Sequence record: MZ826699.1
Direction: 5' to 3' (one strand)
DNA: 50,751 nucleotides
From: Escherichia phage P817
The translations under genes and the position numbers were made by a program. Of this stretch, positions 4,430-29,313 are shown one piece after another. Position 1 is the first letter of the stretch; every line of letters starts with the position of its first letter. A model generated the notes under the pieces. The model was given only the letters and a program-made list of their open reading frames with translations. It searched no databases and was not told where the DNA came from.

Positions 4430-5047
4430 TTACCAAGGAATATCATCGGCCCACTCGTCGATTGCAGGACGGATACCACAGGCGCGAACAACCGCCAGGA
4501 CGCCACCTTCAATATCACCATTCACAAGATGCACGTCATGCTCGTTATATTTCTTGTAATCAGAAAAATGCGATTCCTTTATGCGAATGTAATCACGGCT
4601 ATCTCCCGCGAATGTCTTGCCATCCATGAACAGGCGGACCAGGGTAACATCGTGACCATCTTCAACGAGCCTGATCACTTCATCGGGGAATCCGCCATCA
4701 GTACACACAAAGCTGAATCCTTCATCACACAGTCGGATATGTTCACTCATCAGCTTACCGAATTGCTGATTGCCAAAGAGTGGCTTAACTACCGTCTCGC
4801 TAATCCAGATCATGAACTCACGGCAGGTCTTGCCACCAAGAAAGCTCTGAGGCTGTTCTTTCTGATCTCGGTCATCGTATGCAGTGATGAACTTTGAGAA
4901 ATCTCTGGCACCAAGGATGGATGCTGCAATCTCAAACATCGGACGCTTGAAGCTGGTCGGGATGCAATTGTAATCTGCTGCCAGTGCATTGCCGATCGTG
5001 TCTTTACCTACGGCAGCAGGGCCGTTTAGAATGATAATCTTTGACAT
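4430..5047 (-). CDS. P-loop kinase, polynucleotide 5'-kinase-like
   Basis: Walker A LNGPAAVGKDT at N-terminus (start taken at MSKIIIL with RBS AGGAAT); adjacent to HAD phosphatase gene. Confidence 0.55.
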   Translation of the reverse strand: MSKIIILNGPAAVGKDTIGNALAADYNCIPTSFKRPMFEIAASILGARDFSKFITAYDDRDQKEQPQSFLGGKTCREFMIWISETVVKPLFGNQQFGKLMSEHIRLCDEGFSFVCTDGGFPDEVIRLVEDGHDVTLVRLFMDGKTFAGDSRDYIRIKESHFSDYKKYNEHDVHLVNGDIEGGVLAVVRACGIRPAIDEWADDIPW

Positions 5048-10279: not shown

Positions 10280-10800
10280 TATTTTGTCTCCTTAATCATT
10301 TCCTGGTACATTTTGATTGCCTTGATGGCCCCTGTAATCTCATCGCCTTCAAACTCAGTCACGGATGGCATCAGCTTGAGTATTTTGACCTTAAAGTCGC
10401 TCACAGCCTTCTCTGCAATCTGGCAGTTTGCCTTCACTCGCTTTCCTGTCTGGATTGCGCCATCAACCAAAGACAGATAAGCACACCGAACCTCGACGTC
10501 ATCACCGAAATCACCATCCTTAATTGAAAGTTTTGCACGAACGTTTGCCTCCTGTATCTCTGGCATCCTGGCTACCGTATTGGCGACATATGACGCCTTC
10601 AGCTTTGCCATACTGTACTTGCCACCTACATCCAGATCCTCACGACTTATGCCTCCTATATCACTAGATGTGAGGCCGTAAACCTGGCGAGCTATTAGAT
10701 GGATTGGGACGTGGTAGCTGCGGTTCTCGGACTTGAGCGCTTGCTCCGCCATGTAGCGGACGACATCGCCCAGGCTTACGCGTTGATTATGATTTGACAT
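10279..10800 (-). CDS. hypothetical protein (first gene of leftward early operon)
   Basis: 173-aa ORF adjacent to AT-rich divergent control region. Confidence 0.5.
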   Translation of the reverse strand: MSNHNQRVSLGDVVRYMAEQALKSENRSYHVPIHLIARQVYGLTSSDIGGISREDLDVGGKYSMAKLKASYVANTVARMPEIQEANVRAKLSIKDGDFGDDVEVRCAYLSLVDGAIQTGKRVKANCQIAEKAVSDFKVKILKLMPSVTEFEGDEITGAIKAIKMYQEMIKETK

Positions 10801-11519
10801 AGATATTACTCCTGATTGGTGGTCTTCGTTAAGATGGGTGCAATACTACCAGCGTGGTTACATGTTATCAAGTGTTATTGATGCAAATGTTCGACTTAGT
10901 TACGTTTTGCGACCTCTCGCCCCAGATATAGCTCAATGTAAAGTCTGCGTATAGTTTGTAGATAAGGATTTTTAGCAAATGGGCCCCTACATGACCTTTT
11001 ATTCCTACAATGTCGTCATATTCCTACAGGTGTAGGAAAATATCATAGAAAACAATCGCAATATCACATATCCACTATCTACATTATCTACATATATATA
11101 TATTAATAATAATAATATAGATAAATGGTTATTATATAAGGATATTTTAATGTAACCATGGCGTAATTCTGCGTGATAAGCGTACACGATTCCTACGGTG
11201 GGCTTCTTCATCTACACGGCGTAACTTTTATAACGCGTATGCGCTAGAAACGTGTGGCGGGAAAATCCTACCAGGCGATCAGGGGATCAGACTTCACCCC
11301 ATCATTCCCCCCATCAATGAATCATTGCTCAATTCGCAACAATCGAAAACATCATTGCATCGGAAGCAATATTGCTGTATGTGCAATAGTCATGATAATC
11401 ATTGCAATAGCTGCAACAATCCATAAATCCAACGAATGGCACTTTTTTCTAATGACCGATCAGTTGTGATTCGCTATTGTTACTCCATCGAAACGAGTGA
11501 AGAGAACTGGAGAAAATAA
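10801..11519. promoter_or_regulatory. AT-rich divergent control region with palindrome TTCCTACAGGTGTAGGAA, direct repeats (ATTCCTACA, ATCTACAT, ATCATTGC x3); candidate early promoters or origin
   Basis: Non-coding, flanked by divergent genes; about 70 bp shares about 80% identity with 30710..30805. Confidence 0.45.
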
Positions 11520-11699
11520 ATGAGCACTGTTAAAATTCATTGCTACGTCGTGATGGCTGAGCCACGCGAGCCGGAATATGACACTCAGGTGCACTGCGTG
11601 TGCCTCAGTGAGCAGATGGCAGAGCAGGTTTGCGAGAAGATGAACGCAACCGACAAGTACAACCAGTACGACTACTACGAAACGGAGCTACAGAAATGA
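11520..11699 (+). CDS. hypothetical small protein (59 aa)
   Basis: Read by eye: RBS GGAGAAAATAA then ATG; ATGA overlap with next ORF. Confidence 0.35.
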   Translation: MSTVKIHCYVVMAEPREPEYDTQVHCVCLSEQMAEQVCEKMNATDKYNQYDYYETELQK

Positions 11700-12430: not shown

Positions 12431-12655
12431 ATGTCAGTTAAAGCTCAGAACGTAGTAGCACACATCGAAGCAAAAGGCCGTGCAATCGTCAAGCTGGACC
12501 GCGCCGCAGGCGTAAGCCAAATCACCATTACGCGCCGTGAGTTCGACCGCTACGTTGTTGGCACTCATCCAGGCTCAATCATCCGTAGCCTTACCCGTGC
12601 TGAGATGGTTAAGCTGTTAAACGAAAACTCACTTTATATCAACTCCTGGAGCTAA
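12431..12655 (+). CDS. hypothetical protein
   Basis: 74 aa; strong RBS AGAGGAAG; preceded by box/stem-loop/box module. Confidence 0.5.
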   Translation: MSVKAQNVVAHIEAKGRAIVKLDRAAGVSQITITRREFDRYVVGTHPGSIIRSLTRAEMVKLLNENSLYINSWS

Positions 12656-12657
12656 CA

Positions 12658-12873
12658 GTGCATCAAGATAATTTTCGTGATCGCTATCGTGAAGCTATTG
12701 AGGCCGGACTGAATGAAGATTGGGCGCTCACAGTTTCCTATGGATACGTCGAACTCGACACGGCACTTGGCGAAATGGATATGGACCAGGAAAGCGAAAG
12801 CAACCAGTCAGTAGACGGGATCGGGGATGACTTCGACTACCGCTTAAAATTTGACGACGGAATACCGTTCTAA
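12658..12873 (+). CDS. small acidic protein with SSB-like C-terminal tail (…KFDDGIPF)
   Basis: GTG start 9 nt after GGAG; C-terminus resembles SSB tail DDDIPF. Confidence 0.45.
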   Translation: MHQDNFRDRYREAIEAGLNEDWALTVSYGYVELDTALGEMDMDQESESNQSVDGIGDDFDYRLKFDDGIPF

Positions 12874-12879
12874 GGAATC

Positions 12880-13122
12880 ATGATGAAAATTCGCTGCACT
12901 AACTGCATTACCAGCACTGACAAGAAGGTTCTTACGCCATTCGTAAAAGGCTCTGTATACGACGCTGAGCCGCTAATCATTAACGGTAAGACAATCCCGA
13001 ACGAATGGGTGATTAATGGCGCTGAGCGACCGCACAAGCACGATTCTGGCTGGATTGCTATCGCAGGTTGGAAGGTCGGAATGTTTATCCCTGGAATCGC
13101 AACGTTTGATGAGGTGAAATAA
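12880..13122 (+). CDS. hypothetical protein
   Basis: 80 aa; RBS AGGAATC. Confidence 0.45.
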   Translation: MMKIRCTNCITSTDKKVLTPFVKGSVYDAEPLIINGKTIPNEWVINGAERPHKHDSGWIAIAGWKVGMFIPGIATFDEVK

Positions 13123-13771: not shown

Positions 13772-15355
13772 ATGTTTGATTTCAACGAAGATAAATTGTC
13801 AATCGATCAGGTCATGGCTGTAGCCGCTGCCGATAACCTGCCACCTCTACGCGTAGCAATCAACGCGAACGGGTACAGGCAAAGCCAGTCATTCTGGAAA
13901 TCCCCAACAGAGATTGACTCAGGCGGTGACAAATATCCGGTAATTTCACTTGGTAACGATTATGATGTCGTTGGTAAACTGTCAAGCAATGCCGCTCGTT
14001 CTGTTCAGTTCCCCGAGTCGTCCGCTTACATGCATTTCCTCGGATGCATATCAGCCGCCATGCTGGGCCGATTTACGGTTGAGTATCACGGAACACAACA
14101 GCCTACCGCGCTGTACGTCGTAACCAGTCAGCCGCCATCGACAGGTAAATCAGCCATCAACTCACTTTCGCTGGCCCCGATGATCGCAGAGACTGAACGA
14201 CTCAACGAGATCCGAAAGCGCGACCGCAAGAAGATTATGGCTAAGCTTTCCGCTCTATCCAAGGAGATGAAGCAGGAGAAATCACCGTCTGATATGGCGG
14301 CTCTGTTTGAGGAGAAAGAGGAGCTTGAAGAAAAACTTGAACGACTCTGTGACATCGTTTTCCCCGTATCCGACACCACGCCGGAAGGTCTTGCGCGAAT
14401 CAACAACCGCCAGGGCAACTTTGCAGTTATCTCGGATGAAGCAACGAGCGTGAACTCACTGTTAGGCATGACCTATGGTGACGGCTCAAAGAAAACGAAC
14501 AGCGAGCTTGTGCTTAAGGCGTGGGATGCTGGTAACGTATCTATCGCCCGTGCGAACGCAGACAATAACATGAGCTTCATTGCGATGGGCTGTATATCTG
14601 TAATTGCACAGGATGAAACAATCAACGCGATCATGAATGCTGGTGCGCGTGGTATCGGTGTGTCAGAACGTTTCTTGCTTGTGCGTGAGAAGTCATTCCT
14701 TGGCGAGCGTGTATTCGTTGACGAAAAAGGCGAATCAACATACGAGCCTATTGATGGCGGACTCAAGGCGGACTACTTTCGTCTGGTCCATGAGATCATG
14801 AGCGAACACGAAGTCAACCTGACAGTGAGCACGTCGGCGATGAAATATCTCAACCGTGCGCGTCAGGATATGGAACCTCACCTTGCGGACGGCGGGAAGT
14901 ATTCACACACAATGCTTCGCGGCGCGCTTGGTAAGTTTGATAAGCAGGCTATCAGGATCGCGGCTGTTCTTCACACTGTGCGTAACTGGTTTAATCCCAA
15001 TGGCGGTAGTCCGAAGAAGTCCAGAGAGATTGAGCTTGATACAATGCAGGAAGCGGTAATTATGTTCCAGGAACTGAGTAAGACTTATCTGTCATCTGCA
15101 AACGCTGCTGGTCATGCTGGCGACCATGCGGAGATGAATAAGCTGATCGATATTCTGATCAAGCAAGGTAAGAACGGGAAAGGCGTTGTAGGTGTCCGAT
15201 CCCTATATGAAGCGGCTCGTAAGGTTAAGCCATTCGAGGGCCAGGCTGGCGTAATGACTCGAATCAAAGACCATCTGATCCCTATGCTTGATGAGAAAAA
15301 CTATACGTGCCTGATTGGTGATAAAATTTACATTAATCCGCGACTGCTGGGGTAA
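13772..15355 (+). CDS. putative replication-associated P-loop NTPase
   Basis: 527 aa; Walker A-like QPPSTGKSA and Walker B-like FAVISDEAT in central region; RBS AAGGAG. Confidence 0.55.
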   Translation: MFDFNEDKLSIDQVMAVAAADNLPPLRVAINANGYRQSQSFWKSPTEIDSGGDKYPVISLGNDYDVVGKLSSNAARSVQFPESSAYMHFLGCISAAMLGRFTVEYHGTQQPTALYVVTSQPPSTGKSAINSLSLAPMIAETERLNEIRKRDRKKIMAKLSALSKEMKQEKSPSDMAALFEEKEELEEKLERLCDIVFPVSDTTPEGLARINNRQGNFAVISDEATSVNSLLGMTYGDGSKKTNSELVLKAWDAGNVSIARANADNNMSFIAMGCISVIAQDETINAIMNAGARGIGVSERFLLVREKSFLGERVFVDEKGESTYEPIDGGLKADYFRLVHEIMSEHEVNLTVSTSAMKYLNRARQDMEPHLADGGKYSHTMLRGALGKFDKQAIRIAAVLHTVRNWFNPNGGSPKKSREIELDTMQEAVIMFQELSKTYLSSANAAGHAGDHAEMNKLIDILIKQGKNGKGVVGVRSLYEAARKVKPFEGQAGVMTRIKDHLIPMLDEKNYTCLIGDKIYINPRLLG

Positions 15356-16341: not shown

Positions 16342-16806
16342 ATGAACTGGAATGATATTTTTTATTTAAAAGATGGTGTTTTAATGTGGGGTAAAAAAAC
16401 CTCAAGGAGAGTGTCACTAAATTCACCCGCTGGCAGCATACAAAATAGCGGGTATGTAAGCGTAGGCCTTGACGGTAAAAGATATTACGCACATAGAATA
16501 GTGTGGGAAATGCACAATGGAAAAATACCTGACGGTATGTTCATTGATCACATAAATCACATAAGGCACGACAACAGAATAGAAAACCTCAGATTAGTTT
16601 CAAGATCAGAGAATATGAAAAACCAGAGCTTAAGGATTGATAGCACAAGCGGATTTACTGGAGTAACTTACAGGAAAAGGGATAGTGTATGGATAGCTCA
16701 AGATGACGGATCTCATTTAGGTAGTTTCAATTCATTTGAAGAAGCAGTTAAAGCTAGAGAAAGGTATAATTTAATCAATAACTTTCATGAAAATCACGGG
16801 GCTTGA
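16342..16806 (+). CDS. HNH homing endonuclease with AP2-like DNA-binding domain
   Basis: HNH motif HINHIRHDNRIENLRLVSRSEN; AP2-like GFTGVTYRKRDSVW...FEEAVKARERYN; AT-rich, opposite strand to flanking lysis genes. Confidence 0.75.
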   Translation: MNWNDIFYLKDGVLMWGKKTSRRVSLNSPAGSIQNSGYVSVGLDGKRYYAHRIVWEMHNGKIPDGMFIDHINHIRHDNRIENLRLVSRSENMKNQSLRIDSTSGFTGVTYRKRDSVWIAQDDGSHLGSFNSFEEAVKARERYNLINNFHENHGA

Positions 16807-16817
16807 CGCCCCGATTT

Positions 16818-28171: not shown

Positions 28172-28618
28172 TCAGAATGGAATGTCATCATCGAATTGGT
28201 TTTGCTGATTCGGCTGCTGCTGACTTTGCTTTTGCTGTTGAGGCTGCTGCCGCTTCTGATTTTGACTCTGCTGCTGCGCTGGTTCGCGCTGGCTGAATTG
28301 CAACTGAGGTCGGATCATTTCGGCGGTTACATAAACAGTGCCGTCATTACCCTGGCGTGACGCCAAGTGAAGCGTGTCGGCAGAAATTGATACAACCTTA
28401 CCTTCCTGGAACGCTTCATCATACCACTGCATAACGTTTTCTTTTGCGAAGAACGTAGCTCGGTAGTTACTGTAAACCGTCTCATCCTCGCCCTGCTGAT
28501 TGCGAATCTTCATGCGTTCTGAAAGTTCAACGGCGTACATTTTCCAACGACCGTTGTTGTTGCTGCCTTCTTTGGTGTATGGCGCTTTGCGGATCTGACC
28601 AGTGATTACGTGTGGCAT
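28172..28618 (-). CDS. ssb: single-stranded DNA-binding protein
   Basis: Gln-rich linker and canonical acidic tail FDDDIPF. Confidence 0.85.
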   Translation of the reverse strand: MPHVITGQIRKAPYTKEGSNNNGRWKMYAVELSERMKIRNQQGEDETVYSNYRATFFAKENVMQWYDEAFQEGKVVSISADTLHLASRQGNDGTVYVTAEMIRPQLQFSQREPAQQQSQNQKRQQPQQQKQSQQQPNQQNQFDDDIPF

Positions 28619-28656: not shown

Positions 28657-29313
28657 TTAGAATTGTTCGATGGATTCAGATTGTACAGGTTCGGACGGTG
28701 CATTTGCAACCTTGTCTTCAACCTTTTGAGTATCGGCCTTTTTTGCTGGCTGGAAACCGCGAGCTCTACCGATGATCAATTCAGCCTTGCGCTTCTGCAA
28801 GTGGTCTTCTGCAATCTTCCACTCAGCCGCGCCGAGTGAACCTTTAGCGCTCTTATAGATTACCTGGAGGTCTTCCAGTTTTTCACAGTTGGTGATCAGT
28901 TTTTTGTAGTCTGCTGCCGTGCGCTTCGCGATTTCTGCGTCGTCATCGCTCTGAGTGATTCCAAGCGCCGCGCACAATGCGTAACGGCGACCGTATGATG
29001 TTGTTGAGCCGTAAGCCTGGGCACTAATCTTCTCGATCGGCATGTTGTACTGGAACGCAAGCCACTCGCCAGAACTGTGAAGTATGAGCGTCTCAATGTG
29101 CATTACCTTTTCGGTTGACGTGTCCAGGTTTGACTGGATAACCATAAGGTCATGCTCTTTTAGCGCTGGTTCAACGGCCTCCAGAACGTCCGTCAGGTTT
29201 GAGTAATGGTTTTTCAGGTGAGTGTTAAATCCTGATTTTTTTGCGATAGCAAACTGCTTTTTAGCTGCAATTAGAGCGGATGAAACATTCGAAAACTTCT
29301 CTGATGTACGCAT
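28657..29313 (-). CDS. Erf-like single-strand annealing protein (putative)
   Basis: 218 aa; located between exonuclease and SSB. Confidence 0.45.
   Translation of the reverse strand: MRTSEKFSNVSSALIAAKKQFAIAKKSGFNTHLKNHYSNLTDVLEAVEPALKEHDLMVIQSNLDTSTEKVMHIETLILHSSGEWLAFQYNMPIEKISAQAYGSTTSYGRRYALCAALGITQSDDDAEIAKRTAADYKKLITNCEKLEDLQVIYKSAKGSLGAAEWKIAEDHLQKRKAELIIGRARGFQPAKKADTQKVEDKVANAPSEPVQSESIEQF

Follow-up and report, generated by a model that had tools for sequence, protein, structure and literature searches.

Escherichia phage P817 (Drexlerviridae, genus Nouzillyvirus) encodes a 71-residue homologue of phage T1 gp06 whose last residues resemble the C-terminal tip (SSB-Ct) of bacterial SSBs. 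The protein is not itself an SSB; the tip is a short linear motif that the two have in common. To judge from its homologues, no other feature of the protein has been selected as strongly and persistently as the tip, which corresponds to the SSB-Ct recognition core. What is new here is an SSB-tip docking motif on a non-SSB scaffold, the motif itself being already known. We tentatively read the protein as an adaptor and weigh this reading below against three others. The window, that is, the whole stretch of DNA that was analysed (50,751 nucleotides, MZ826699.1), corresponds to approximately the whole phage genome, and the features discussed are collected in Table 1.

The acidic ORF of 71 codons that a preliminary description had reported, with a GTG start and a GGAG ribosome-binding site, is present at 12658..12873 on the plus strand. 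Its product, which shows 100% identity to a P817 hypothetical protein, ends ...DFDYRLKFDDGIPF and is followed by TAA (C-terminal sequence of the gp06-like protein, ...DDFDYRLKFDDGIPF). A tGGAGctaa-like context also precedes the ATG of the T1-like homologues in JMPW2 and Shfl1, with one base different in Sfin-1, and in the homologues this ATG stands at the position equivalent to the P817 GTG. The first internal methionine of the P817 protein is residue 40, and no start other than the GTG would therefore leave the conserved N-terminal domain intact. The protein is strongly acidic, with 19 Asp and Glu against 5 Lys and Arg (net charge -14, pI 4.05). The protein encoded immediately upstream, a homologue of T1 gp05, is basic; throughout Drexlerviridae its gene keeps synteny with the gp06 homologue, which it always adjoins. 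The two genes may be translationally coupled, and the gp05-like protein is a possible partner of the gp06-like one. Its match to the BRCT domain of NAD-dependent DNA ligase (1l7b) was not significant (E 0.13), and the label 'polyribonucleotide nucleotidyltransferase' that it bears in some records looks unfounded.

Table 1 Coordinates of the gp06-like gene, its parts, its neighbours and other tip-bearing or associated genes. Positions refer to the window unless a locus of another viral contig is given.
Feature	Position	Strand	Remarks
CDS, 71 aa, T1 gp06 homologue (phrog_9085)	12658..12873	+	profile match, full length
N-terminal core domain, residues 1-47	12658..12798	+	three helices predicted by AlphaFold2; reused in longer phage proteins
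ALGEMDMDQES motif	12763..12795	+	junction of domain and disordered region
Acidic linker, residues 47-63	12796..12846	+	predicted disordered; pLDDT < 50 at residues 44-47 and 50-58
C-terminal tip KFDDGIPF	12847..12870	+	SSB-Ct-like; I69, P70 and F71 invariant in 39 close homologues
GGAG ribosome-binding site	12648..12651	+	6-nt spacer to the GTG of the 71-aa ORF
Upstream gene, 74 aa, T1 gp05 homologue (phrog_4344)	12431..12655	+	stop codon 2 nt before the GTG
Downstream conserved gene, 80 aa (phrog_4448)	12880..13122	+	same syntenic block
DUF3987-type DNA helicase (phrog_2373)	13772..15355	+	downstream of the small genes; ends ...PRLLG
Phage SSB, 148 aa	28172..28618	-	ends ...NQFDDDIPF; tip FDDDIPF at 28175-28195
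dNMP kinase, 205 aa (phrog_139, E 2.8e-44)	4430..5047	-	ends ...AIDEWADDIPW; DDIPW at 4433-4447
Example viral loci ending DDIPW-TAA	L045:5045-6850, L120:4178-5371, L047:5708-6325		
Mini C5-methyltransferase copies	L001:2924-3619, L003:3227-3937, L004:1963-2652, L005:1734-2438, L009:1405-2082, L012:531-1235		

The gp06-like gene and the DUF3987 helicase gene share one plus-strand block of small ORFs, which begins at 11520 and is closed by a terminator-like hairpin (16797-16813), and they are therefore probably co-transcribed. The gp06-like gene may be expressed early. The helicase itself has no SSB-type tip. Ahead of this block lies an AT-rich stretch of about 700 bp (10800..11520) without convincing genes, on one side of which the minus-strand genes end, near 10800, and on the other the plus-strand small ORFs begin. 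It contains short tandem repeats of 12 and 19 nt, an (AT)n palindrome (11076-11123) and two promoter-like sites, and is probably a divergent regulatory region. The replication genes recognised in P817 encode a helicase, a primase, ERF, SSB and an exonuclease, and no DNA polymerase is among them.

By profile comparison the 71-residue product is a homologue of phage T1 gene 06. It matches phrog_9085 over residues 1-71, aligned to profile positions 1-69 of 69 (E 4.1e-28), and the Shfl1 record carries the notes 'similar to T1p05 / T1p06' at its gp05- and gp06-like genes. A homologue was found by tblastn in 351 phage records, overwhelmingly from phages of enterobacteria; the records that we examined individually were all Drexlerviridae, save one unclassified. 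The family profile yielded 277 homologues, and an HMMER search of 1.84 billion cluster representatives returned only 40 clusters at E < 1e-3. Distant members are encoded on contigs of about 1 kb, which give little gene context. The core domain of the family also matches phrog_9323 and phrog_4823, and all three PHROGs, covering the T1 gp06 family and its long relatives, are annotated as 'unknown function'.

Gene order is kept across subfamilies: the gp05-like gene is followed by the gp06-like gene, then by a gene of 72-80 codons, and the DUF3987 helicase gene comes last. In many lineages a mini C5-methyltransferase of about 230 residues, sometimes together with an HNH gene, lies between the 72-80-aa gene and the helicase. 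In Tls-like and Warwick-like phages, NBD2, Klebsiella phages and metagenomic relatives this methyltransferase is encoded directly downstream of the gp06 homologue or close behind it, with an HNH or small gene sometimes intervening. An obligatory link between the two genes was rejected, as no mini C5-methyltransferase is present anywhere in the P817 window. In some records the gp06 homologue is itself mislabelled 'putative cytosine DNA methylase'.

AlphaFold2 predicts three helices for the P817 protein (residues 4-15, 20-27 and 33-45) and no strands, with block-mean pLDDT values of 66-78 over residues 1-40. Residues 44-71 have low pLDDT, and this C-terminal third is presumably disordered. The mean pLDDT is only moderate, at 63 for the P817 protein and 58 for a family member with a cysteine knuckle, and the latter model is uninformative as to whether IPF is packed or free. 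The models thus suggest a two-part protein in which a three-helix domain is followed by a flexible acidic linker, at the end of which the C-terminal tip is free. Conservation in the family is highest at ALGxMDMDxES, within the extended pattern ...AGLNxEWAxKVAxxxxTLxxALGxMDMDxES, and the acidic linker behind it differs between lineages in both sequence and length, its place being taken by a Cys4 knuckle in many of them. Short forms of 60-102 residues consist of the core domain and a variable tail. In long forms (160-310 residues) the core domain is internal and the ends are different; these include phrog_4823 and fusions with a phrog_3786 zinc-ribbon or with phrog_15368. The long relatives, among them the remote homologues P0147, P0150, P0151, P0158, P0160, P0161 and P0163, have the core of about 45 residues with ALGDMDMDxES and, unlike the P817 protein, no P-F tip. 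The protein had been pictured as carrying only a tail, and this has to be given up: it has a conserved folded N-terminal domain that recurs in other architectures.

Database comparisons did not connect this domain to a characterised fold. Pfam gave no match for the 71-residue protein, its neighbours or its long relatives, a PDB sequence-profile search with the protein found only a chance match (E 1.4), Foldseek with its model against the PDB returned nothing at E < 1, and PADLOC gave no defence-related profile match. An OB-fold ssDNA-binding domain was found neither by Pfam nor in the AlphaFold2 model, which has helices only. Foldseek against BFVD retrieved only uncharacterised phage proteins, several of them with high sequence identity to the query. 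Among these matches are uncharacterised proteins of ViI-, PhiSH19- and phiEa2809-type phages, which may, on the strength of the models, be further relatives.

The end of the protein is conserved to a degree that the linker is not. When the family was reduced to 125 cluster representatives at 90% identity, the endings were FPF (56), IPF (39), IPW (29) and LPF (1). A hydrophobic-P-[FW] end is found in 144 of 150 short forms, remote representatives included, or in 147 if two PFW endings and one EPF ending are counted. Among 27 representatives of clusters at 50% identity, position -1 is Phe in 20 and Trp in 5, -2 is Pro in 22, -3 is Ile in 18, and -5 is Asp in 15 and Glu in 3. The aligned endings point to a family consensus of [DE]-x-I-P-[FW]-COOH, with the same positions as D-D-I-P-F of SSB. 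Three types of tail lead up to it. The first is an acidic run, as in the P817 group (KFDDGIPF), T1-like phages (DDDDYIPW), SXFY507 (FDDGDFIPW) and several metagenomic lineages. The second is a Cys4 knuckle, DCGCRGxxxCxxC-IPF, found in the most diverse set and in NBD2, and the third is a knuckle ending C-K/A-R-C-FPF, found in Tls-like, Warwick-like and Klebsiella phages. Upstream of the tip 78 of the 150 short forms have acidic residues (D66 and D67 in the window), while 66 have at least three Cys and fewer than two acidic residues at positions -9 to -4. The acidic FDDxIPF appearance therefore seems to be lineage-specific. Within the P817 lineage (39 sequences, 72-100% identity) conservation reaches at least 90% at all of the last 15 positions apart from G56, and in the same sequences many N-terminal positions vary.

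C-terminal conservation among homologues was the point on which the preliminary description had most exposed its proposal, and the conservation is there, across all three tail types. The more specific expectation of a conserved D-D-x-I-P-F was borne out in part: the hydrophobic-P-[FW] end is kept, and D-D-x is not family-wide, many members having a Cys4 knuckle with IPF or FPF. That the P817 protein carries an SSB-type docking tip is supported by this conservation together with the likeness of KFDDGIPF to the E. coli SSB-Ct DFDDDIPF: six of eight residues are identical, among them the IPF core, the proximal Phe and two Asp.

A chance origin of this likeness is excluded. The expected number of ORFs with a [DE]-x-hydrophobic-P-[FW] end among the 348 of at least 40 codons in the window is 0.024; three were observed, namely the 71-aa ORF, the phage SSB and a dNMP kinase. 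The internal pattern [DE]xIP[FW] occurs nowhere in these 348 ORFs. Comparison of the three tips shows different codons at almost all synonymous sites, and hence the likeness is kept at the protein level. The same difference in synonymous codons led us to reject recent copying of the SSB 3' end into the gp06-like gene. Co-variation of the last residue of the gp06-like protein with the SSB tip was likewise rejected, since JMPW2 combines IPW with an IPF-ending SSB and U136B combines FPF with IPF.

The phage SSB does end in FDDDIPF and lies at the coordinates given earlier; the one point to correct is the strand, which is minus. It matches phrog_44 (E 2.5e-26) and gives no Pfam SSB match even up to E 1. 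A long Gln-rich linker precedes its tip, and its gene comes directly after that of the ERF annealing protein (28657..29313). In the dNMP kinase the tip forms the end of an appendix of about 15 residues, [DE]x[DEG][IL]PW, which is kept in relatives down to about 53% identity (EELDEIPW, EEDDDIIPW). More distant kinases of about 191 residues do not have this appendix, and we therefore regard the kinase tip as an added tag. Such a tag suggests that the kinase is tethered to an SSB-tip receptor, possibly at the replisome. In T1-like JMPW2 and Tls-like U136B, SSB-type ends are found only on the SSB (FDDDIPF in both) and on the gp06 homologue.

A scan of viral contigs for DDIPW-TAA extended this pattern to at least 120 loci (L015-L134) in at least 26 unrelated protein clusters. 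Among the matches listed are SSB types (phrog_44, phrog_9002, phrog_743 and the gp2.5-like phrog_112) and many families without known function. The same ending closes a 601-residue phrog_16 DNA helicase, a 397-residue AAA+ ATPase and the dNMP kinase of NBD2. As DDIPW-stop thus ends a kinase, a helicase and an AAA+ ATPase besides SSBs, the tip appears to be a portable C-terminal tag that phages place on non-SSB proteins as well.

The explanation that we prefer, tentatively and with somewhat less than an even chance of being right, is that the gp06-like protein is an adaptor whose tip would dock into an SSB-tip receptor and whose N-terminal domain would hold a second partner. The tip, F-D-D-G-I-P-F-COOH, would occupy the hydrophobic and basic pocket of the receptor in the manner of SSB-Ct. 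Docking in this pocket is suggested because the most strongly selected part of the protein is also the SSB-Ct recognition core, and the crystal structures with ExoI and RecO resolve no part of SSB-Ct other than IPF (PMC10143822). Candidate receptors in the host are the chi subunit of Pol III, ExoI, RecQ and PriA, of which chi would be the obvious one because the phage has no identified polymerase. The ERF annealing protein is a candidate receptor on the phage side, since phage annealing proteins and recombinases bind SSB-Ct according to two reports (PMC6393309, PMC13490951). The N-terminal domain would bind a phage partner, either the gp05-like protein or the DUF3987 helicase. In this way the adaptor would tie a component of the replication module to an SSB-tip receptor, and the dNMP kinase would be attached to the same receptor through its own tip.

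We favour the adaptor because the tip is also carried by the kinase and, elsewhere, by helicases, because the N-terminal domain is conserved and reusable, occurring in tip-less architectures, and because a general decoy would compete with the phage's own SSB. A further point in its favour is that the tip survives full replacement of the preceding sequence, whether this is an acidic run or a Cys4 knuckle. Two observations count against docking: the largest Tls-like group has basic residues and Cys before the tip (C-K/A-R-C-FPF) rather than acidic ones, and an end in Trp or FPF is not a canonical SSB tip. SSB-Ct peptides typically bind with micromolar affinity, and at such an affinity tethering and competition would both depend on expression level or oligomerisation. 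It had been proposed that the protein could titrate host partners or recruit them. Both still stand as readings, with recruitment at least as plausible as titration; on a kinase, helicases and an ATPase, recruitment would be the natural role of the tip.

Titration would take the form of a decoy, in which an abundant early protein fills the SSB-tip pockets of ExoI, RecJ, RecQ, Ung and the PriA-dependent restart system, so that host enzymes dangerous to phage DNA, or in competition for it, lose their coupling to SSB-coated ssDNA. Added affinity might come from the acidic linker, should it lie in an adjacent basic or ssDNA-binding surface. We consider this possible but doubtful. Conservation of the tip speaks for it exactly as it does for the adaptor. 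The protein is small, has the net charge and pI given above, and lies in a run of small ORFs, as is typical of host-takeover genes, and the P817 lineage has a long constrained segment (GDDFDYRLKFDDGIPF), as expected of an extended interface. Its tip retains two Asp and the counterpart of SSB Phe172, residues that contribute to SSB-Ct affinity (PMC10143822), and host ExoI and phage SSB-type tips have already been tied to the outcome of phage defence (10.64898/2026.04.29.721553). However, a decoy would out-compete the phage's own SSB with its canonical tip too, and the tips of the dNMP kinase, the helicases and the ATPase are hard to read as inhibition. A conserved N-terminal domain that is reused without a tip is also more than a decoy needs, unless it serves to oligomerise the tails, and the Cys-knuckle lineages have no acidic run. 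Taken to the family level, the T1 gp06 family might be a natural inhibitor of the bacterial SSB interactome, with the tip serving additionally as an address label on phage enzymes, a proposition about which we are equally hesitant. The tip, with a linker that possibly mimics ssDNA, would then block the pockets of ExoI, RecJ, RecQ and PriA; if so, recombination or replication intermediates of the phage would be protected, or SSB- or ExoI-linked defence blunted.

We think it unlikely, and more so than the decoy, that the tail is a C-terminal module peculiar to this family, in origin a Cys4 zinc knuckle with a CIPF end, and has a target unrelated to SSB-tip pockets. The target might be the gp05-like protein, the helicase or the mini C5-methyltransferase, and the likeness to SSB would be a convergence of acidic low-complexity tails. 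DCGCRGxxxCxxC-IPF is indeed the commonest pattern among diverse representatives, the Cys-rich, acid-poor tails make up the 66 of 150 short forms counted above, many lineages have the methyltransferase of about 230 residues right downstream, and 'putative cytosine DNA methylase' is the name of the homologue in some databases. Yet what stays after loss of the knuckle is the three terminal residues and the acidic position -5. Tails have converged repeatedly on a D/E-rich sequence with IP[FW] in separate lineages, namely P817, T1-like phages, SXFY507, P0135, P0138 and P0149, and the same acidic tip is carried by an unrelated enzyme of P817, the dNMP kinase. Moreover, no mini methyltransferase gene adjoins the family gene in P817 or T1-like phages, and the window contains none. 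It is very improbable that the protein is a general acidic DNA mimic or anti-restriction protein like T7 Ocr or Gp5.9 with an incidental tail: its charge, pI, small size and place among small ORFs would suit such a role, but it has no fold or sequence similarity to Ocr, ArdA or Gp5.9 (Pfam, PDB sequence, Foldseek against the PDB and PADLOC), and the near-absolute conservation of the last three residues, beside an acidic linker that a Cys knuckle can replace, would go unexplained.

If docking is true, the gp06 family provides a small, widespread and easily tested tool, found throughout Drexlerviridae including the classical phage T1. It would also show how phages that depend on the polymerase of their host connect their own proteins to its replisome, or keep host repair enzymes away. 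The wider distribution of the tip suggests that such tagging is a general principle of DNA metabolism in phages, which could help to assign roles to many proteins of unknown function.

Genome maintenance in bacteria has the SSB tip as its hub peptide, and the tip has been proposed as a target for antibiotics. In bacterial SSBs as in the P817 protein it stands at the extreme C-terminus behind a disordered linker. The P817 protein differs from an SSB in having no OB fold and, as a helical protein of 71 residues with a pI of 4.05, no plausible ssDNA binding if its model is right; many members of its family differ further, with a Cys4 knuckle in place of the acidic run or with an FPF or IPW end. 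Another docking peptide, the beta-clamp-binding motif, has the consensus QL[SD]LF or QLxLxL, and KFDDGIPF and all tails of the family are without its Q and L positions. T7 Ocr and Gp5.9 are similar to the P817 protein in size, charge and position among small ORFs, and are without sequence or fold similarity to it; its conserved feature is the terminal peptide rather than a pattern of charges.

In the searchable literature we found no small non-OB protein with an SSB tip, no tip mimic, decoy or anti-defence protein of this kind, and no natural tip-bearing protein other than SSBs. The proteins described there are true SSB-like proteins only, namely Bas52_0087 (10.64898/2026.04.29.721553) and the DARNA trigger (10.64898/2026.02.22.705581). 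Bas52_0087 has two predicted OB folds and requires its FDDDIPF tip to trigger DRT10, a process in which host ExoI is involved, and a link between this protein and the ssDNA metabolism of the host, ExoI/SbcB included, has been proposed; the case shows that phage-borne tips are biologically relevant (10.64898/2026.04.29.721553). The tip is common to Bas52_0087 and the P817 protein, whereas the OB folds of the former have no counterpart in the latter.

By analogy, the closest functional precedent is the sharing of tails in phage T7, where several replication-related proteins have an acidic tail with an aromatic end, as do the SSB, the gp06-like protein and the dNMP kinase in P817. In T7 the gp4 helicase-primase shares its acidic tail and terminal Phe with gp2.5, and both tails dock on the T7 DNA polymerase. 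The gp2.5 tail, acidic with a terminal Phe on an SSB, has been described (10.64898/2026.02.22.705581). The P817 tails are of the bacterial-SSB type, IPF or IPW, unlike those of T7, and the tagged 71-residue protein, unlike gp4, has no known enzymatic domain. Because, unlike T7, P817 has no polymerase among its identified genes, the receptor of its tips would probably be a host protein.
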